DNA of 64,000 nt from an uncultured Bacilli bacterium (lineage in GTDB: Bacteria; Bacillota_I; Bacilli_A; RF39; UBA660), in contig CAJTKB010000002.1 in assembly GCA_910576925.1 (NCBI GenBank), forward strand, positions 419 through 64,418, read 5' to 3'. Positions within the stretch are counted from its first letter, which is position 1, and each line of letters begins with the position of its first letter. Below, piece by piece: positions 22,247 to 62,714 of the stretch. The translations under genes were made by a program, and so were the position numbers. The notes under the pieces were generated by a model that worked only from the letters and a program-made list of their open reading frames with translations, was not told the DNA's origin and ran no database searches.

Positions 22247-22984
22247 TTAATTATGTAAATTAGGATTTTCATCTTTTTTATGGTAAGAATATAGTCTCTT
22301 AACTTCTTTTAAATTAAGCTTTCTATATTCTCCACTTTTTAGATTTTTAACATCTAAAAAAGCAAAATATTCCCTTTTTAGTTTTATAACTGAATGCCCT
22401 AAAGCTTTAAAAATATTCTTAACCTCATGATTATGACCTTCTTTCAAGATCAAAGAAACATAACTAACATTACTACTAAGATCATATTTCTTAACTTTAA
22501 TATATTGAGGATAACATTTAATACCATCTATTACAATACCACCTTTTAAAGATGAAATTTCTTCTTTTGTAATCAAACCTTCAATTTTTGCATAATAACA
22601 TCTTTCTATCTCATTTCTTGGATGCATTAAGATATTAGCAAGTTCTCCATCATTTGTAAGAATTATCGCTCCTGTAGTATCATAATCAAGTCTTCCTACT
22701 GGATATATTCTTTTATCAGTATCTATTAAATCAACTACTGTCTTTCTATTTTTATCATCAACTACACTTGAAACCACACCTCTTGGTTTATTTAATAAAA
22801 AATATACTTTTTCTTCTTTTGTTATACTTTTTCCATCTACAATAATATTATCACTATACTTTGCTTTACTACCAAGTATAGCTACTTTACCATTAATTGT
22901 AACTAAACCTTTCTTTATTAATTCTTCAGCACATCTTCTAGAACAAACACCTGAATTTGCTATAATTTTTTGTACTCTCTCCAT
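22247..22984 (-). CDS. rluB: pseudouridine synthase, RsuA/RluB family, with an S4 domain
   Basis: N-terminal S4 (RVQKIIANSGVCSRR) and the catalytic VGRLDYDTTG motif. Confidence 0.85.
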   Translation of the reverse strand: MERVQKIIANSGVCSRRCAEELIKKGLVTINGKVAILGSKAKYSDNIIVDGKSITKEEKVYFLLNKPRGVVSSVVDDKNRKTVVDLIDTDKRIYPVGRLDYDTTGAIILTNDGELANILMHPRNEIERCYYAKIEGLITKEEISSLKGGIVIDGIKCYPQYIKVKKYDLSSNVSYVSLILKEGHNHEVKNIFKALGHSVIKLKREYFAFLDVKNLKSGEYRKLNLKEVKRLYSYHKKDENPNLHN

Positions 22985-23554: not shown

Positions 23555-23980
23555 CTAAACTGTGATCTTATAATCTTTTGTTTTCTTCTCTATTAGTCTT
23601 GCATAGTTTTTAGGAGATGTTAAAACATTTTGATAAGTAGATATTTTTCTTATCTCTTCTAAAAATTCAATTTCTTTATCTGATACATATAATACCCTTT
23701 TATCTGATTTTATTATATTATCAGTACCTAAAATATAATTGATATCAACTTCAAAATAGTTAGCTATTTTTATAAGTACTTCCAATGGTATTGCTCTTTC
23801 TTCTTTTTCATAATGAGAAAGAGAAGTTTTACCTATATTTAATACTTTTGCTAATTCTCTTTGCGTTAAATTATTCTTCTTCCTTAATTCTCTTATTCTT
23901 TGCCCTATTACTGCCATATAATACCTTTTACCTTTCAATAGCATTATAATAGGTAACAATTTGGAGATTTTATAATCCAC
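23555..23980 (-). CDS. XRE-family HTH transcriptional regulator. The likely true start is the internal Met MAVIGQRIRELR.
   Basis: HTH_XRE motif LTQRELAKVLNIGKTSLSHYEKEER. Confidence 0.7.
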   Translation of the reverse strand: MDYKISKLLPIIMLLKGKRYYMAVIGQRIRELRKKNNLTQRELAKVLNIGKTSLSHYEKEERAIPLEVLIKIANYFEVDINYILGTDNIIKSDKRVLYVSDKEIEFLEEIRKISTYQNVLTSPKNYARLIEKKTKDYKITV

Positions 23981-24050
23981 GAATTGGAGAAAATATTTTT
24001 TTCAAACAAAAAACACTATCATCAAATTGATAATAGTGTTTTTTCTTTCA

Positions 24051-24422
24051 TTAACAAGTATTATGATTATTGTCAAACCATATAATATAAAAATGCTCAT
24101 TATCTCTATATCCAATAATTCTAAATTTTTCTGACAATCTCATAGATTGAATTGTAACATCCTTCGATATATTATCTGGTATCCTCATATTGTGCAAAAC
24201 CTCATATCTCATTCCACGGTCTTTTTTTATGTCTTTCCATTCTAATTTTTCAACTTTTTTAGCAAACTTTATAAATTCTTTTAATTCATTTGTATTTAAG
24301 TTATATATAGGATACTTATCATCACACATAGAAAACTTTAATGTACAGGTATTATTATCAGTACTACTATTATTTAACTTATATTTCGGTTGTTGTTTTT
24401 TTACCTTGAAACTATTCTTCAT
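24051..24422 (-). CDS. hypothetical protein, a candidate partner (toxin?) of the upstream Panacea-domain protein
   Basis: 123-aa ORF that overlaps the upstream gene by 11 bp. I recognise no motifs. Confidence 0.4.
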   Translation of the reverse strand: MKNSFKVKKQQPKYKLNNSSTDNNTCTLKFSMCDDKYPIYNLNTNELKEFIKFAKKVEKLEWKDIKKDRGMRYEVLHNMRIPDNISKDVTIQSMRLSEKFRIIGYRDNEHFYIIWFDNNHNTC

Positions 24423-24987
24423 TTAATTTTAATTTAAAAAAATCTCTCATACTTTTTTTAGAAATAATTTTAGTACACATTTCTCCAGGTTGAAAGCCAT
24501 TTCTAGCCTCGATCCAAGGCTTCTCTTGGTGTGTCATATTTTCTAAGTATTTGCCATCATAAATACCAAATGTTTCCCAAATTGAATATAAAAAATCAAC
24601 TAATTCATTGTCGAATAATGGAATTTCATCTTTTGTAGGACTATCAATTACATTAAATCCATACTTTTTATATTTATCATAAATTTCTGGATTAGCTGGT
24701 CCGTGTGCCCAAGCTTGAAAATCTTCATTAAATAATTCTTTTCCATTAATTGCCAAATAATATCCTTGAGCATAGTATAGTATTTTTTGCAATTTTAATG
24801 GAGTTATAGTACTCCCTGAATCCCTATCAACAATATTTAGAAAAAAATTAGCTACACTAAAAACGTCAATTTTGTCTCCTTTTTTCATCTTAAACACTCC
24901 CTTAAATATATATCTTCCTATTCTATTAATAGAATAGCACATTTTTTTGAAAATTAATATACCATTTTTAAACATAATGTCAAGCAC
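24412..24987 (-). CDS. Panacea-domain (DUF4065, SocA/GepA-like) phage-associated protein
   Basis: FSVANFFLN...PLKLQKILYYAQGYYLAINGKELFNEDFQAWAHGPANPEIY matches the DUF4065 consensus. The likely start is the internal MKKGDKIDVF. Confidence 0.65.
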   Translation of the reverse strand: MLDIMFKNGILIFKKMCYSINRIGRYIFKGVFKMKKGDKIDVFSVANFFLNIVDRDSGSTITPLKLQKILYYAQGYYLAINGKELFNEDFQAWAHGPANPEIYDKYKKYGFNVIDSPTKDEIPLFDNELVDFLYSIWETFGIYDGKYLENMTHQEKPWIEARNGFQPGEMCTKIISKKSMRDFFKLKLNEE

Positions 24988-25133
24988 CTCTTTTATTTTT
25001 TATTAATATTTCTTACTTTTTATATAAGTTGTCTATGCCTATTTTTCTATAAAATATATTATTTAGTATGCGCTATTATGTTAAATTCAAAACAAAAAAG
25101 AGACTAATCACATAATGCGACTAGCCTCTTTGA

Positions 25134-26018
25134 TTAATTATTACTTACTTCATATAAATAAGTTGAATATACCCAAACATCACGTCCAGCAATTTTTAAT
25201 TTAGCTGAATTAGTTGGTATATCTATTTCTTGAACAGTATAGATATTATCATTTTTAACATAGCTTGTACCACCTGTTAAAAGCTGGTCGTTTGTAGGAT
25301 TGCCATTTTTATCTACTTCTGTAAAATCACTTGTAGGTAACCAGTGATAATTCTTCACACGTTCATTATAATAATCATCATAACTATTACCTGTAAGTTC
25401 GCAACAACCAAACAAATTACTTGATAATGGACTTTTTAATATATCAACTTTGAATATACCATTGAATTTAACTTTGCTACCTTTAACTAATATCTGGTCT
25501 GGTTCATTTGTAACTTGACTTACGCTATTGCCCATTTTGCTTCTAACCATATTTAAGAACCTTTCCCAGCCCATATCTAAAGTACGATGTGGGCAATATT
25601 TATTTGCATAATCTTGATGCTTAGTTACTTTATCTATACCCCAACCATATCTTTTAAGAATACCTGCAATTAGTTCTGCTGCGTTTTCTTCTGCTTTATT
25701 AAATCTATCTCCTCCAGATTTAGAATAACAAATTTCAATAGCTATACCTTCTCTATTGCCTTTGCCATTGCCATCACCAGAATGCCAAGCATTTCTGTTT
25801 TCAGGTAAACCTTGTACTGCTTCTACATCATCTACTGCATAATGATATGATACTTGACTGCCACCTTGTGCCTGATTTTTATTCATATATTTAATCTCTG
25901 CGTCTGCTGAGGCGTCATTTGCTGTATTATGCACTACTATTCTTGTTGGTCTCATAGAATACGGACTCTTCCAACTGTATAAACTGGAACTCATTAAGTT
26001 TTGTCTTACTTTTACCAT
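25134..26018 (-). CDS. endolysin: N-acetylmuramoyl-L-alanine amidase (Amidase_2/PGRP fold) with a C-terminal cell-wall-binding domain
   Basis: IVVHNTAN...SYHYAVDD...AWHSGDG...KHQDYANKYCP are Amidase_2 zinc-site motifs. Confidence 0.85.
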   Translation of the reverse strand: MVKVRQNLMSSSLYSWKSPYSMRPTRIVVHNTANDASADAEIKYMNKNQAQGGSQVSYHYAVDDVEAVQGLPENRNAWHSGDGNGKGNREGIAIEICYSKSGGDRFNKAEENAAELIAGILKRYGWGIDKVTKHQDYANKYCPHRTLDMGWERFLNMVRSKMGNSVSQVTNEPDQILVKGSKVKFNGIFKVDILKSPLSSNLFGCCELTGNSYDDYYNERVKNYHWLPTSDFTEVDKNGNPTNDQLLTGGTSYVKNDNIYTVQEIDIPTNSAKLKIAGRDVWVYSTYLYEVSNN

Positions 26019-26020
26019 AA

Positions 26021-26290
26021 TTATTCACTCTCCTTATTTATTAAATTTCTAAATGTTTCATATAATCCTGTACTAGCTAAACCACTAAACAAGCCTGTTA
26101 AAATGACTTCTAAACTTATTTGATGAATATTTGATAAAACCGCTAATAATGTTCCTAAAATTCCCATAATTAAAGGAATAAACCTATTTACTTTATTTGA
26201 TGGTATTGCTTCTTTTATAATATAACCTACTCCCAAACAAATACCTAAAATTACTAAATTAATAAAACTTGTTAATTCATTTATATTCAC
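26021..26290 (-). CDS. holin
   Basis: 89-aa protein with two or three TM segments and a charged C-terminus, immediately upstream of the endolysin. Confidence 0.6.
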   Translation of the reverse strand: MNINELTSFINLVILGICLGVGYIIKEAIPSNKVNRFIPLIMGILGTLLAVLSNIHQISLEVILTGLFSGLASTGLYETFRNLINKESE

Positions 26291-26877: not shown

Positions 26878-27636
26878 CTAACTAACAGTCCAACCCTTGT
26901 CTGTTGCTATTTGTATTTCTTCTTGATTAAGTTTTGTCAAATTATCTCCTAAAACTAATTTCTGTGTTCTGCAACCTGCAGAAGCAATATCATATATACT
27001 ATTAATTACATTCATTAAACTATCATAGGTTAAGTGGCTAGAAGCTGATAAGTTTAAAGCATAAGCTGTACTATTAGCTGCTGTAGTAGTAAGATAACCT
27101 TTGCCGATGTTTGGAAAACCAATAATATTTTCAAGACTTGTACAATTAGTAAACATATTGTTAATGTTAATTACTTTTTCAGCAGATAAGTTACTTAAAT
27201 TTATATCAGTTAATTTTGTGCAACCAGAAAACATTGCTATCATAGTAGTTATTTCTCTAATATCTGAATCGCTTAAATCTACACTTATTAAACTTGAACA
27301 ATCTGTAAACATATTGGCCATTGTAGTAGACTTACTTAAATCTAAACTTCTTAAATCTAAAATAGCAGCTTGCTTACAACTTCTAAACATATTACTTGTG
27401 TTTGTAGGCTTGCAAATTTTTAATATATCTTCAACTTCATCTAAACGTGAGCTACTATAAAAAAGATATGAACAATCTGCTATGTAATATTGACTTGTAT
27501 TTCCTGATTCACTAGAAATACTATTTATTTCATTATCAAACTCACTAGTTGGAATAGGTCCTGCTGTATTTTTCTTGTTTCTTATAGCAGCCGCTACATC
27601 TATTAAAAAATGTTCTAAACTATCTATTCTAGCCAT
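26878..27636 (-). CDS. BspA-type leucine-rich-repeat protein (putative tail fiber / receptor-binding component)
   Basis: Repeated CxxLxxIxLxxxxxxIxxMFxxC units, for example CSSLISVDLSDS...MFSGCTKLTDINLSNL...MFTNCTSLENI. Confidence 0.7.
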   Translation of the reverse strand: MARIDSLEHFLIDVAAAIRNKKNTAGPIPTSEFDNEINSISSESGNTSQYYIADCSYLFYSSSRLDEVEDILKICKPTNTSNMFRSCKQAAILDLRSLDLSKSTTMANMFTDCSSLISVDLSDSDIREITTMIAMFSGCTKLTDINLSNLSAEKVININNMFTNCTSLENIIGFPNIGKGYLTTTAANSTAYALNLSASSHLTYDSLMNVINSIYDIASAGCRTQKLVLGDNLTKLNQEEIQIATDKGWTVS

Positions 27637-28469
27637 CAGTAACTACCTCCCAACACTTGAACTATATTTTCATCAATATAATTGTTGCAATGTTCTTTTA
27701 TGGCATTTAGATCTTCTTCATTCCAATAGTCGATACCTCTTTGAGGAATGTATCCATCTTTACCATCTATTCCTGCTTCTCCCTGCTCTCCTTTTGGTCC
27801 AACTTCTCCTCTGTCGCCCTTCTCTCCTGGCGGGCCTTGAGGTCCTGGAATACTCTCAATATTCGCTATTTTCTCATTTAAAGATGATATATCTTTTTTG
27901 ACTTCCGTATCATCGTAATTATTTAAATCATCTAACTTTTCTTTATAATCATTTGTAAAGTCATTAGCAGATAAGTCTTTGCCTTCTACCTTCTTTACAT
28001 AGTCATCTAAGTTAATGTTTCCTAAATCAATATTGTCAATTTCTTTTTTTATCAATTCAGGTATTTCATTTAGTCTGTTATTTAATTCTTGCTGATATTG
28101 TTCTAGTTGACTAGGTGTTATCTCTTTAGAGTTTTCAGCATTTTCAATGTAAGAACCATTACTTACATAAAAGCTTTGTGGACTTGGACTAAACCTTTTT
28201 ATTAGTTCATTATCAACTATTTTATAAGCATAAACTCCTAATATTGCTTCTCCTCTTTTTTCTAAAACTTCATAAGGAAACTCACATTGATTATTAAAAA
28301 TAGTCATTTCATATGTTTTATTACTGACTGTAAATAAAGCCTTTTTCACAAAATTATCATCATATTCGGAACTAAATTCAAATAAACATTTTGAAACTTT
28401 ATGTTCCTTTTTGTTTATTACTTCTTTATCTGTTATCTCAATATTATGAGCATTAACTAATACTTTCAT
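27636..28469 (-). CDS. collagen-like repeat tail fiber protein
   Basis: GPQGPPGEKGDRGEVGPKGEQGEAGIDGKDG is a GXY tract of about 14 repeats, from a GC-richer stretch at 27750-27880. Confidence 0.7.
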   Translation of the reverse strand: MKVLVNAHNIEITDKEVINKKEHKVSKCLFEFSSEYDDNFVKKALFTVSNKTYEMTIFNNQCEFPYEVLEKRGEAILGVYAYKIVDNELIKRFSPSPQSFYVSNGSYIENAENSKEITPSQLEQYQQELNNRLNEIPELIKKEIDNIDLGNINLDDYVKKVEGKDLSANDFTNDYKEKLDDLNNYDDTEVKKDISSLNEKIANIESIPGPQGPPGEKGDRGEVGPKGEQGEAGIDGKDGYIPQRGIDYWNEEDLNAIKEHCNNYIDENIVQVLGGSY

Positions 28470-56566: not shown

Positions 56567-56926
56567 ATGTTTGGAGAAAGACTAAAATATTTACGAGAAA
56601 ACAAAAACTTACTTCAAAAAGAATTAGGAGATGCTTTAAATGTTACTTCTCAAACTGTGAGTGGCTGGGAAATTAATAGAACAAAACCAGATTATGATAT
56701 GTTGGTTACTATAGCAAATTTTTTTGAAGTTACTATTGACTATTTATTAGGTAATGAGATGAAAGCAACTAAAATTGAAAATGAATTAAAAGAAAAAGAA
56801 GCGTTGAAACAGTTATTAATAAAAAATGGATATATGAAAGAAAACGAAAATTTAAGCGACGAGGAATTAAATAAGCTTATGAAATTTGTGGTTAATAATA
56901 AAGATATATTGAAAGGAAATAAATAA
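56567..56926 (+). CDS. CI-like XRE-family repressor
   Basis: HTH (LLQKELGDALNVTSQTVSGWE). The RBS is AAGGAGG. It is divergent from the cro-like gene. Confidence 0.7.
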   Translation: MFGERLKYLRENKNLLQKELGDALNVTSQTVSGWEINRTKPDYDMLVTIANFFEVTIDYLLGNEMKATKIENELKEKEALKQLLIKNGYMKENENLSDEELNKLMKFVVNNKDILKGNK

Positions 56927-57792: not shown

Positions 57793-58690
57793 CTAATTAA
57801 AGGATTGTAACCTGTAATTTACGGGAGATAGTCCTTTTAATTTTACTTTAATTCTATCATAATTATAATATTTAATATAGTCATCGATTGCTAAAATTAG
57901 TTCATCTATTGTTTTATAACTTTCTTCTTGGTCATAAAACATTTCAGTTTTAAGAAGTCCAAAGAAATTCTCCATCATTCCGTTATCCATGCTGTTTCCT
58001 TTTCTAGACATGCTTTGCTTAATACCTTTATTCTTTAATCGTTGTTGATAAGAAGCATGCTGGTATTGCCAACCTTGATCAGAATGAAATATTAAACCTT
58101 CTAAATTTCTATCATTAAATGCTTTATCTAACATATCATTTATTTGTTCTAGATTTGGAGATTTAGATGTATTGTAAGATACTATTTCACCATTAAATCC
58201 GTCTAGTATTGGTGATAAATAAATCTTTTCTCCACGAAGATTGAATTCAGTAACATCTGTATACCATTTCTGATTTGGTTTAGCTGCAGAGAATTCTCGA
58301 TTAATATAATTATCTGCTATTTTACCAACTGTTCCTTTATATGATGAATATTTTCTTTTGTTTCTTTTTAAAGGTTTTAATCCTAACTTCACCATTATTC
58401 TATAAACTTTCTTGTGATTAACATTATAACCTTGATTTCTAAGTTCTAATGTTATCCTACGATAGCCATATCTTTCTTTATTATTTATAAATATTTCTTT
58501 AATTTTATCAATTATTTCATTATTTTTTTCATCTTTATCTGTTTTAGATAAAGTATAATAATATACTGATTTTGCTAAACCAGATATCTTTAGAAGAATC
58601 TTTAATGAATATGTTAGCCGAAGTTCACTTACAACATTTACTTTTTCTTCTGTTGTTGATTCTTCCTTGCTTGAACAACGGCTCTCAATT
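57793..58690 (-). CDS. IS3-family transposase OrfB (DDE integrase core). The N-terminus extends upstream of the first Met and is expressed by -1 frameshift from orfA.
   Basis: KERYGYRRITLELRNQGYNVNHKKVYRIM upstream of the annotated Met, together with HSDQGWQY, matches the IS3 OrfB pattern. Confidence 0.75.
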
Positions 58691-59144
58691 TTTTTGAGTA
58701 TTCTAGCTCAGCCTTCAAATATAAATTCTCTTCTTGTAATCGTTTTATAGTTTCATCTTTAGTTTCTTTAGATTTTTTCTTCGTTACTTTTGGCATAGTT
58801 GGACGCCCTCGCTTTCGTTCAACTATATTATAACCATTTTCTTTATATTTTGAAATCCAGTTTGATAGCATTCCATGACTAGGTAATCCTAAATCTATAG
58901 AAACTGCCCAGGTAGATTCCCCTTTATTTAAAACTCTATTTATTGCATCTATTTTGAAAGTTAAAGAATATCTTTTATTTTTCTTTTTTTGCACTATCTT
59001 GTATCCATGTCTCTCAATTAATCTAACTAAATATTTCACTCGTCTTGCATCAATTTTATATTCTTGATGAACAGTTTCAAGAGAGACACCTTTTTTTCTT
59101 TTATTATATATTTCAACTTTATCCTCATAACTTAATTTAGACAT
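58638..59144 (-). CDS. IS3-family transposase OrfA (HTH)
   Basis: 168 aa with an HTH and a leucine-zipper-like C-terminus, ending near the slippery site. Confidence 0.75.
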   Translation of the reverse strand: MSKLSYEDKVEIYNKRKKGVSLETVHQEYKIDARRVKYLVRLIERHGYKIVQKKKNKRYSLTFKIDAINRVLNKGESTWAVSIDLGLPSHGMLSNWISKYKENGYNIVERKRGRPTMPKVTKKKSKETKDETIKRLQEENLYLKAELEYSKKLRAVVQARKNQQQKKK

Positions 59145-59552
59145 ATAAAAACCTCGCTTCTATTTTGTCCAAGAAACGGGGTTCATATCAAAAAACTAGT
59201 GCTTTTTACTTTGTTCTATTAACCACTTAATAAATTGTTTGTACACTCCCTGCTTTTTTAAATAATTATAGAATTTATCAAAATTATTCAACTTAATCAC
59301 CCCCTGTTCTATTTTAGATAAATATTTAATATTTTTTGGAAATGATATATAATCGTACTCATCAACTTGTAGTTTTCTGCATTTCTAGCAACTTACAATA
59401 TCATAAAACAAATGAAAATACGTTTTTTTACCTTTAAAGCTTAAAAATAGACCTTCAAAATAAGTGAAGGTAAAAAATTAATGGAAATAATTACAAAAAA
59501 AATAATTAATAAGTTTTGCTATAATTTTTTTAGAATGAAGAGGTTATAGTTT

Positions 59553-60203
59553 ATGAGAATTGTAGTTATTGAAGATAATAAAAGAGTTAACTCATTGATC
59601 TGTGAGTATGTAAATGAAATAGTAAGTAAAAGTTGTTTAGATTATCAATTATTAAATTTTTATAGTTTTAATGATAATCTTAGAAAAATTATTTATAATT
59701 GCGATATTAAAATTTATATTGTAGATTTACAGCTCAATTCTAAAAGTGGATATAATATTTGTAGAGAAATACGAGAAGGAGCTAATGATTGGAAAAGCAT
59801 TATAATTATTTGTTCAGCTTATAATCAAAAAGAAGAAATTATATCTTTAAGACTATCTATTTTTACTTATGTATCCAAACATATTAATTTTAAAAGTAAC
59901 ATCAAAGATAGCATAAATAAAGCTATCCAAATTTTATCTAGTAATAACATTGTAACAATAGATAAAAATACAAAAATATGTATTAATGATATTTGCTATA
60001 TTGAAAAAATTAAACAAACTAAGTATTGTAAAATAGTTACTCTAGATTCTAAAGAATATAAAATAATGAAAACTATTAAAATGTTGAAAAAGGAACTAAA
60101 TTTTAAACAGATAAGAAACTATTTGCTAATTAACGATAATAATATTAGAATAATAGATAAACAGGAGATCACCTTTATAAATAAAATTAGTATTAAATAT
60201 TAG
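59553..60203 (+). CDS. LytTR-family response regulator (REC + LytTR), orphan
   Basis: MRIVVIEDN with the IVDLQL acceptor Asp region, and a C-terminal LytTR pattern (ICYIEK...FKQIRNYLLINDNNI). Confidence 0.6.
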   Translation: MRIVVIEDNKRVNSLICEYVNEIVSKSCLDYQLLNFYSFNDNLRKIIYNCDIKIYIVDLQLNSKSGYNICREIREGANDWKSIIIICSAYNQKEEIISLRLSIFTYVSKHINFKSNIKDSINKAIQILSSNNIVTIDKNTKICINDICYIEKIKQTKYCKIVTLDSKEYKIMKTIKMLKKELNFKQIRNYLLINDNNIRIIDKQEITFINKISIKY

Positions 60204-60218
60204 AAAGGGAATAAAAAT

Positions 60219-61181
60219 ATGAGTACAGAATTAGAACAAAGAAATGAAATAATATTATTTGAAAATCAAGAAGTCAAACTTGAAGTAAATATGCAAGATG
60301 AAACTGTTTGGTTATCTTTAGAACAAATGGCTAGATTGTTTGACAGAGATAAATCAGTAATTTCAAGACATATAAGAAATGTTTTGGAAGAAGAGTGTGA
60401 CAATTCAACTGTTGCAAATTTTGCAACAGTTCAAAAAGAAGGTAATAGAGAAGTTACCCGAGAAATAGAATATTATAATCTGGATGTAATAATTAGTGTA
60501 GGTTATCGTGTTAAAAGCAAAAATGGTATTTTATTTAGAAAATGGGCTAATAAGGTATTAAAAGACTATATGATACAGGGATATTCAATTAATAAGCAAA
60601 GACTTGAATATTTAGAAAAAACAGTTAAGCTAATAGATATTGCTAACCGTGTAGATAGCGAATTAAAAAGTAATGAAGCTAGAGAGATTATTAAAGTTAT
60701 AAATGAATATTCTAATGCTCTAAATTTATTAGATGAATACGACCACAGAACTTTAACTAAACCTAAAGGAACATTAAATAATGATGTAATAATAAAATAT
60801 CAAGATTGCTTGAATATAATTAATCAAATGAAATTCAAGAACGATAGTGATATTTTTGGATTAGAGAGAAACAATGGCTTAGAAAGTATTATAAACAACG
60901 TATTCCAATCATTTATGGAAAACGATGTCTACCCTACCATTGAAGAAAAAGCCTCTAATTTTCTGTATTTAATTGTTAAAAATCACGTATTCATAGATGG
61001 TAACAAAAGAATAGCTGCTACCCTATTTATTTACTTCTTACAATTCTATAATATTCTTTATAAGAATAATAAACAAGTAATAGATAACAACACATTAGTA
61101 GCAATAACGTTATTAATTGCAGAATCTAATCCTAAAGAAAAGCAGATTTTAATTGATTTAATTATGAATTTTCTAAATTAA
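60219..61181 (+). CDS. RhuM-family protein with a C-terminal Doc-type Fic domain
   Basis: NLDVIISVGYRVKSKNGILFRKWANKVLKDY is the RhuM signature. HVFIDGNKRIAATLF matches the Doc/Fic HxFx(D)GNKR motif. Confidence 0.7.
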   Translation: MSTELEQRNEIILFENQEVKLEVNMQDETVWLSLEQMARLFDRDKSVISRHIRNVLEEECDNSTVANFATVQKEGNREVTREIEYYNLDVIISVGYRVKSKNGILFRKWANKVLKDYMIQGYSINKQRLEYLEKTVKLIDIANRVDSELKSNEAREIIKVINEYSNALNLLDEYDHRTLTKPKGTLNNDVIIKYQDCLNIINQMKFKNDSDIFGLERNNGLESIINNVFQSFMENDVYPTIEEKASNFLYLIVKNHVFIDGNKRIAATLFIYFLQFYNILYKNNKQVIDNNTLVAITLLIAESNPKEKQILIDLIMNFLN

Positions 61182-61334: not shown

Positions 61335-62714
61335 ATGATAAAGAATAATGAAACAATAAACAAAATAATTAGAGTTGCTATATATATACGAGTATCTACG
61401 GAAGAACAAGCCAAACACGGTTACTCACTAGGTTCACAACTAACTAGACTAAAAGAATATTGTAAACAAAAAAGTTATAAAATTATAGAAGTTTATACTG
61501 ACGAAGGAAAATCAGCTAGAAGCAAACTAAAACTAAGAACAGAACTTTTAAGACTAATAGAAGATGTCAAAGCTGGAAAAATAGATAGAATTGTTTTTTG
61601 GAGACTTGATAGATGGTTTAGAAATATTGCTGATTATTACAAGGTCCAAGAAATATTAGAAGCTAATAATGTTGACTGGGAATGTTCTGATGAAGAATAT
61701 AACACTACTACCTCAAACGGACGACTTCATTTAAATATTAAACTATCTATAGCACAAAATGAATCAGATCAAACCTCAGACAGAATTAAGTTTAATTTTG
61801 AAAATATGATTAAAAGTAAAAAAGCAATATGTTGTACTCACTCTTGCCCATTTGGATATAAAGTAGAGGGTGAAAAAGGTAATAAACACGTAGTAAAAGA
61901 TAAAGAAAAAGAAGAAATGGTAAATTTTATTTTTGATACTTATGAGTTGAACAATAACTACAGACAAACAACTATCCTTTTTAATAAAAAATATGGTTAC
62001 TCTACTGATCCTACCATTATTAAAAAGATGTTAAAGAAAACAATTTATTATGGAGAATATAAAGGTGTTACAGATTATACAGAAGCTTATATCACAAAAG
62101 AAAGATGGAATAAAATCCAAGAAATGCTTCCAAATAACGTTAAAAAAAATAAAAATCACGAATATATTTTTTGTGGATTAATTATTTGCAAACATTGTGG
62201 TAGAAAAATGTCAGGAAGTACTAATAGAAGTTATCAGAGATATACTTGCAAAAAGAATAAAGAAGCTAAAGTTTGCCCGAATACCAAACAAATTACACAA
62301 AACAGACTTGAAAATTATTTGTTATTTATTCTTGAAGATTTACAAAAATTAGAAGTAGATTCTATTGCAAAAGAAAAAGAAGATAAAAATACCATTGACA
62401 TAGAAAAAGAAACTAGTAAAATAGATAAAAAAATCAATAGATTAAATGAATTATATATTGAGGGTCATATTTCCAAAGAAAAATACGATAAAGATATAAC
62501 TATATTCCAAAAGCAAAAAACAGAATTTCTTTCTCTAAAAAGAAAAAAGAAGAAAGAAAAAGAGATTATTAATCTCCCTAATGATGCTATAGAACTTTAC
62601 AAAATGCTAAATTCTGAAAACAAAAGAAACTTTTGGAAAAAGTATATAGACTATATAGAATTTGATTATACAAAGGATAATATAGAAGATAGAATAACTA
62701 TAATTTTAAAATGA
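61335..62714 (+). CDS. large serine recombinase (phage integrase/excision recombinase)
   Basis: N-terminal resolvase domain VAIYIRVSTEEQ...GYSLGSQ, a recombinase domain and a zinc ribbon (CKHCGRKMSG...YTCKK). Confidence 0.85.
   Translation: MIKNNETINKIIRVAIYIRVSTEEQAKHGYSLGSQLTRLKEYCKQKSYKIIEVYTDEGKSARSKLKLRTELLRLIEDVKAGKIDRIVFWRLDRWFRNIADYYKVQEILEANNVDWECSDEEYNTTTSNGRLHLNIKLSIAQNESDQTSDRIKFNFENMIKSKKAICCTHSCPFGYKVEGEKGNKHVVKDKEKEEMVNFIFDTYELNNNYRQTTILFNKKYGYSTDPTIIKKMLKKTIYYGEYKGVTDYTEAYITKERWNKIQEMLPNNVKKNKNHEYIFCGLIICKHCGRKMSGSTNRSYQRYTCKKNKEAKVCPNTKQITQNRLENYLLFILEDLQKLEVDSIAKEKEDKNTIDIEKETSKIDKKINRLNELYIEGHISKEKYDKDITIFQKQKTEFLSLKRKKKKEKEIINLPNDAIELYKMLNSENKRNFWKKYIDYIEFDYTKDNIEDRITIILK

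Follow-up and report, generated by a model that had tools for sequence, protein, structure and literature searches.

The window analysed here is the whole stretch of 64,000 nucleotides (nt) taken from contig CAJTKB010000002.1 of an uncultured Bacilli bacterium; its sequence is identical to contig CAPQJM010000003.1 of the metagenome-assembled genome (MAG) GCA_948686165.1. Between the lysis cassette of a prophage and the host flank it carries two overlapping minus-strand genes, which we call panA and panT. The corresponding open reading frames (ORFs) are 24412-24987 (191 amino acids, GTG start) and 24051-24422 (123 amino acids). An initial annotation, made from the sequence alone, proposed that they are a candidate PanAT toxin-antitoxin pair, located just past the lysis cassette at the end of the prophage that typically holds cargo. 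The position is as described: a holin-like gene (26021-26290) and an Amidase_2 endolysin gene (25134-26018) lie on the upstream side of the pair, and host genes lie on the other. The assignment is supported by the Panacea domain of the upstream protein, by a strictly conserved architecture, by a promoter and a terminator of the pair's own, and by a post-lysis position that recurs elsewhere. The pair is a further instance of a known PanAT type, and the family of the second protein is already catalogued.

The two genes share 11 nt (24412..24422, minus strand, ATGAAGAATAG), running from the panT start to the panA stop, which is the overlap given in the initial annotation. Since no Shine-Dalgarno motif is present within about 20 nt upstream of the panT ATG, the overlap suggests that panT is translationally coupled to panA, as was supposed. 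The length first given to the upstream protein is a different matter. We believe that panA most likely starts at ATG 24888 and not at GTG 24987, so that it occupies 24412..24888 (minus strand) and encodes a protein of 158 amino acids; 191 amino acids is probably too long. This follows from three facts: homologues of PanA measure 147-160 amino acids wherever the upstream frame is closed by stop codons, the ribosome-binding motif GGGAG precedes ATG 24888, and a near-consensus promoter sits within the supposed N-terminal extension. The extension was considered as coding sequence and rejected, as other loci resemble it as DNA and have stops in this frame. A non-coding block upstream of panA (about 24915-24946) is conserved as DNA in loci whose PanA proteins are only 65-77% identical, and it is this block that produces a false N-terminal similarity among over-extended PanA ORFs.

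The promoter is of the sigma-70 type (24956..24983, minus strand; TTGACA-16-TGgTATATT, with an extended -10 element and 11/12 consensus matches). A promoter scan returned 12 promoter-like sites against a shuffle mean of 14.3, i.e., no excess, so the case for this promoter rests on the quality of the match and on its position. Just 3' of it, within the conserved block, lies a perfect 20-bp palindrome (24918..24937, CTATTCTATT/AATAGAATAG, arms 100% complementary), which is unique in the window and expected 0.03 times by chance; it may be an operator or an element of the 5' untranslated region. The panT gene (24051..24422, minus strand) is followed by an intrinsic terminator (24008..24044, minus strand) with a 17-bp stem and a U-run, a folding energy of -21 kcal/mol and a z score of -7.7; none of 200 shuffles folds as well, and the AT-rich stem is the reason why the consensus terminator scan missed this hairpin. 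On the other side, the endolysin terminator (25097..25131, minus strand; a 16-pair stem and then a T-run) separates the late/lysis operon from panAT. Because the genes are probably coupled, possess their own promoter and have terminators on both sides, panAT is, judging by these predicted signals, a self-contained bicistronic unit.

The DUF4065/Panacea signature that the initial annotation ascribed to the upstream protein is present, with the motifs it quoted: the match to Pfam PF13274 is significant (E 1.1e-20, 75.1 bits at a cutoff of 25.7, residues 33-125). The protein also matches PHROG 1281 (E 1e-46). The SocA model NF047745 aligns to residues 8-90 only, with 73.6 bits, while its equivalog cutoff is 190. 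SocA is the antitoxin of the type VI system SocAB of Caulobacter, which likewise carries a Panacea domain; the likeness ends there, since the score is far from the SocA range and the partner of PanA is not SocB-like. Domain scans of PanA gave no extra N-terminal domain and no helix-turn-helix or other DNA-binding domain. By its domain content PanA is a stand-alone Panacea protein and the putative antitoxin of the pair.

The initial annotation recognised nothing in the 123-amino-acid partner. With an E limit of 1, Pfam indeed gives no match to PanT, but PanT does match three other models: NCBIfam NF046006, the “MAG6450 family” (57.9 bits at a cutoff of 40, model positions 8-101 of 103; relatives score 20-55 bits on it), PHROG 8366 (E 2e-17), and the PADLOC model PDLC03891 of NsnC (E 4e-15, positions 180-279 of 284). 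Among 1.84 billion cluster representatives searched with a profile, at least 541 are relatives with E no higher than 1e-3; stand-alone proteins of 120-170 amino acids predominate, and a few are about 280 amino acids long with the domain at the C-terminus.

Two AlphaFold predictions were made for PanT, one with 22 close homologues (predicted local distance difference test score, pLDDT, 76.7) and one with 66 diverse homologues (pLDDT 90.8, all five models at 90.2 or above). They agree in topology, with one strand at 27-29, two helices (44-58 and 62-67), another, short strand at 74-76, and C-terminal strands at 91-95, 101-107 and 110-117. The fold scores are 7.5 for HigB, 7.5 for RelE3, 7.3 for YafQ and 7.1 for YoeB, and lower for ParE (5.4-4.6) and BrnT (4.1); Foldseek agrees on the RelE/ParE fold with a probability of up to 1.00. 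These scores establish a fold, not homology or function. The model search and the structure prediction thus place the partner in the catalogued MAG6450 family, with a predicted RelE/ParE (BECR) fold. As in RelE, YoeB, YafQ and HigB, the predicted helices pack on a four-stranded antiparallel sheet, and as in RelE/ParE systems the toxin-like gene follows its antitoxin in a two-gene operon. PanT differs from these toxins in its length, with some 30-40 extra residues, in its N-terminal tail, which is basic and disordered, in an insertion at 68-90, and in having a Panacea protein as its partner and not RelB, YefM, DinJ or HigA.

Residue conservation, counted over 66 diverse family members, is concentrated at W62 (66/66), H120 (65/66), R101 (64/66), D117 (63/66, with E in the remaining three), G104 (62/66), R95 (58/66) and R106 (57/66); all family-conserved residues are intact in the PanT of the window. 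In the C-terminal sheet, strands two and three bear the conserved arginines; D117 is the final residue of the last strand, and H120 comes after it. When PanT is aligned locally to Escherichia coli YoeB without gaps, R101 stands opposite the catalytic R65, and in the same register, read by eye, H120 falls one position after H83; hhalign gives this register for the first part, without significance. PanT would thus share with YoeB an arginine that opens the third strand and a histidine located after the last strand, and we consider R95, R101, R106, D117 and H120 a candidate active site. This pattern bears on the question whether PanT, within the same kind of toxin-antitoxin module and with the same RelE/ParE fold, could be ParE-like, i.e., could poison DNA gyrase and cut no RNA. 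The Arg/Asp/His set favours an RNase over such a gyrase poison, and we regard the ParE-like variant as quite improbable.

The match to NsnC connects PanT with the defence system Menshen. The C-termini of NsnC proteins are polymorphic effector domains, mostly BECR RNases (Li et al. 2025, PMC12065111). Those members of the PanT family that are about 280 amino acids long and were examined (P0112, P0120, P0121 and P0178) are full-length NsnC proteins of the subtype PDLC03891 (E 3e-73 to 1e-111), and the stand-alone PanTs match only the C-terminal 100 or so positions of this model. The C-terminal part of about 100 residues is homologous to PanT (library-wide E 1e-8 to 1e-10) and shares with it the signature R...G[YF]R...[WF]D.H. 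The human-gut contig L027 (2401-5451) has the Menshen layout: a GmrSD_N/DUF262 gene, an AAA_15/AAA_21 ATPase gene and the 286-amino-acid NsnC P0178. The difference from PanAT consists in the NsnC protein itself, about 280 amino acids long with an N-terminal PIN-like domain, and in its place after a DUF262/GmrSD_N protein and an AAA ATPase; no such neighbours of the three-gene locus (NsnA, ParB-DUF262; NsnB, ABC/AAA ATPase; NsnC) accompany the pair in the window. As judged from sequence similarity, the same effector domain serves two different control modules, PanAT and Menshen. The Menshen paper does not draw this link between a PanT toxin domain and a Menshen effector subtype, and it does not mention Panacea (PMC12065111). 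One further lead is AarT(D3):AAA(D29) of Acinetobacter guerrae, whose toxin, WP_152878172.1, has no HHpred hit, is assigned an mRNA-interferase fold and inhibits methionine incorporation (PMC10440598). Its pairing with an AAA ATPase parallels the link of the PanT family to NsnB/NsnC, and AarT(D3) and PanT may belong to one family, a lead drawn from a comparison of their descriptions.

Stand-alone family members were examined in 17 distinct loci: the window (L001), L007, L008, L009, L011, L012, six loci of isolate and MAG genomes (L013, L015-L019), a Pseudomonas phage (L020) and the distant members L021, L023, L024 and L025. A related-loci search with a narrow family alignment yielded 7 genome loci. 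A Panacea gene is located immediately upstream of the panT homologue, on the same strand, in all 17, down to a PanT identity of 24%. Pfam annotations, some precomputed and some from direct runs, confirmed the upstream genes; the five neighbour proteins tested directly (L011, L016, L018, L019 and L020) all match PF13274. The gap between the two genes is -11, -8, +4 or +9 nt in the 12 loci where it was measured, and the identities of PanA and PanT to the proteins of the window fall together, from 77/78% down to 41/24%. Among the paired loci are Firmicutes, Muribaculaceae and Alphaproteobacteria MAGs and Pseudomonas phages. The pair is flanked by four unrelated prophage lysis cassettes (Amidase_2, Peptidase_M15_3, Peptidase_M23 and Amidase_3) and is also found outside prophages, in a methyltransferase/NOV_C/NERD (restriction-modification) neighbourhood and in plain chromosomal contexts. 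A conserved pair with differing flanks is what PMC8832971 took operationally as a PanAT locus, and the 17 loci are of this kind. Among the distant cases, the pair of L025/L026 (89-4295; PanT 31% identical) stands between an Amidase_3 endolysin with a holin and a tyrosine integrase. Judging by such gene orders, the module has been reused in the post-lysis slot of unrelated prophages. In the uncultured Bacilli MAG of L017 (2923-3270) PanA is intact and PanT is frameshifted, with an ORF of 70 amino acids and then an out-of-frame remainder; this looks like decay of the toxin with the antitoxin retained, a common mode of toxin-antitoxin decay.

Published PanAT systems offer a close counterpart in the PanT cluster T1 of Kurata et al. 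2022 (PMC8832971). The part of their Dataset S1 used here holds about 217 rows for T1, and the rows seen there have a “noNTD” PanA, the antitoxin-first order and short gaps, including -11. In the same part, T1 spans Mollicutes, Firmicutes, Bacteroides, Proteobacteria and Chloroflexi, and its members include the Mycoplasma agalactiae 5632 pair WP_013022262/WP_013022263 as well as WP_074844970.1. In M. agalactiae PG2, MAG6440 is annotated as “putative prophage protein ps3” and the next-numbered MAG6450, the namesake of NF046006, as a conserved hypothetical protein; the Pfam-confirmed Panacea protein of the Pseudomonas phage in L020 is labelled “prophage ps3 protein 01”. Because the MAG6440/MAG6450 pair corresponds in position to the T1 pair and the architectures match, the MAG6450 family is very probably cluster T1. 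The window pair resembles T1 in having a stand-alone “noNTD” Panacea protein first, a small partner, a short gap or overlap and a broad, patchy distribution over phyla. It differs in that the copy of the window occupies a prophage moron position; full validation as a toxin-antitoxin system has been achieved for no pair of T1. None of the ten validated PanAT pairs has a RelE-fold toxin, and the other RelE-like PanT clusters, T14 and T28, are listed as “notest”, one T28 toxin having been attempted and stuck in cloning (PMC8832971). The suggestion of an undescribed toxin needs correction, as the family has a name at NCBI, a predicted RelE/ParE fold and, very probably, an entry among the listed PanTs.

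The toxins RelE, YoeB, HigB and YafQ inhibit translation by cleaving RNA. With this in mind, we consider the best explanation to be that panAT is bicistronic prophage cargo resembling a toxin-antitoxin system, in which a translation-targeting RNase toxin with the RelE fold is held by PanA; our confidence in it is moderate. Transcription of the unit would start at its own promoter and would not depend on the phage late operon. PanA (158 amino acids) would be translated first, and PanT (123 amino acids) would follow through the 11-nt overlap. By analogy with the four toxins just named, PanT most likely inhibits translation by RNA cleavage, and PanA most likely keeps it inactive by direct binding (type II), as would be in line with the stand-alone Panacea proteins studied in PMC10440598. 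If PanA were lost or displaced, as might happen when another phage infects the cell or when the prophage itself is lost, the RNase would be set free. We presume that the module is expressed in the lysogen, where it would serve phage exclusion or prophage retention.

Several points weigh against this explanation. PanT has no detectable sequence similarity to the toxins whose fold it is predicted to share: PDB searches with its sequence and with the family profile returned chance hits only, hhalign of the family gave no significant alignment to YoeB or YafQ of E. coli (probability <1%; both query sequences were verified as exact PDB matches), and Pfam, PDB and hhalign together give no sequence-level link to the RelE, YoeB, YafQ, HigB or ParE families. 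The active-site equivalences are based on a sequence register, not on structural superposition, and the equation of the family with T1 is drawn from annotation and architecture. Moreover, the T1 PanT of Clostridium cadaveris, tabulated as “mRNase”, proved toxic in E. coli, where its PanA gave no rescue, and eight other PanTs were non-toxic in E. coli (PMC8832971).

The eight non-toxic proteins, and the annotation of both PHROG 8366 and PHROG 1281 as “unknown function”, are what one would expect if the partner were not a toxin at all, the two genes being a benign conserved phage pair or a decayed remnant. We find this very improbable. All residues conserved in the family are retained in the PanT of the window, and both the fold and the homology to NsnC point to an effector; the pair also occurs outside prophages, next to restriction-modification/NERD genes and in plain chromosome, a distribution that sets it apart from structural or replication functions of phages.

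The main uncertainty of the toxin-antitoxin explanation is the neutralisation step, as the only probable relative tested was not rescued by its PanA. This failure in E. coli would be understandable if PanA acted indirectly, either as a SocA-like protease adaptor by which PanT is kept scarce (type VI) or mainly as an abortive-infection sensor dependent on some factor from the host or a phage. Over its first 83 residues PanA is similar to SocA (NF047745, 73.6 bits), the authors of the NetFlax study favour a sensory role for Panacea (PMC10440598), and the toxin domain doubles as a Menshen defence effector. However, the SocA score is far under the equivalog cutoff, and the partner is unlike SocB; all PanAT pairs tested in pull-downs formed complexes (PMC8832971); and a stand-alone Panacea protein neutralises its toxin directly in both cases that were dissected (NetFlax, PMC10440598). 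The tight translational coupling, too, favours the formation of a stoichiometric complex. An indirect action of PanA is, in our opinion, unlikely, and direct binding of PanT by PanA is preferred.

With these results, a predicted fold and a candidate active site can be assigned to a still unvalidated PanT cluster, probably among the two largest. A wider view is tempting, although we can offer it only tentatively: the MAG6450/T1 domain would be an interchangeable RNase effector of PanAT and of the Menshen ParB-ATPase module, and its prophage copies would be abortive-infection or superinfection-exclusion devices expressed in the lysogen, with PanA as the phage sensor. Such a sensor would explain why the only tested PanA of the cluster failed to rescue E. 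coli. Four unrelated types of prophage have the module in one and the same place, after the lysis genes and before the attachment site, and a role in the lysogen is therefore testable.

As for the neighbourhood, the initial annotation placed the pair next to an XRE regulator. An HTH_3/XRE gene is indeed present on the downstream side (23555-23917, minus strand), 133 nt 3' of panT and past the terminator; it encodes 120 amino acids, of which the C-terminal half is uncharacterised. It is not a conserved part of the module, as no XRE gene was found beside panAT in any other locus examined. It was accordingly rejected as a third component, and we treat it as a separate cargo or regulatory gene. 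Beyond it lies the host flank, with a host-type rluB-like pseudouridine synthase gene (22247-22984), a ferredoxin gene and PolC. The far end of the prophage carries a CI-like repressor gene (56567-56926) and a large serine recombinase gene (61335-62714). A search for direct repeats of an attachment site gave short AT-rich matches only; long attachment repeats are not expected, because the prophage encodes a large serine recombinase. A DNA search of a phage collection returned a short match to the Panacea gene only.

The opposite end of the prophage also carries cargo, adjoining the serine recombinase gene (57793-61181 of the window). By reading of the sequence alone, it consists of a two-ORF transposase-like element, a candidate of the IS3 type (57793-59144), an ORF of 216 amino acids that is a candidate LytTR-type response regulator (59553-60203) and an ORF of 320 amino acids that is a RhuM/Fic-like candidate (60219-61181). 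A LytTR response regulator annotated by Pfam is also located directly 3' of the PanAT pair of L007. Of two adjacent genes in the tail region of the window prophage (26878-28469, minus strand), one codes for a DUF285 protein and the other for a protein containing collagen-like G-x-x repeats; both products probably belong to the receptor-binding or tail-fibre apparatus.
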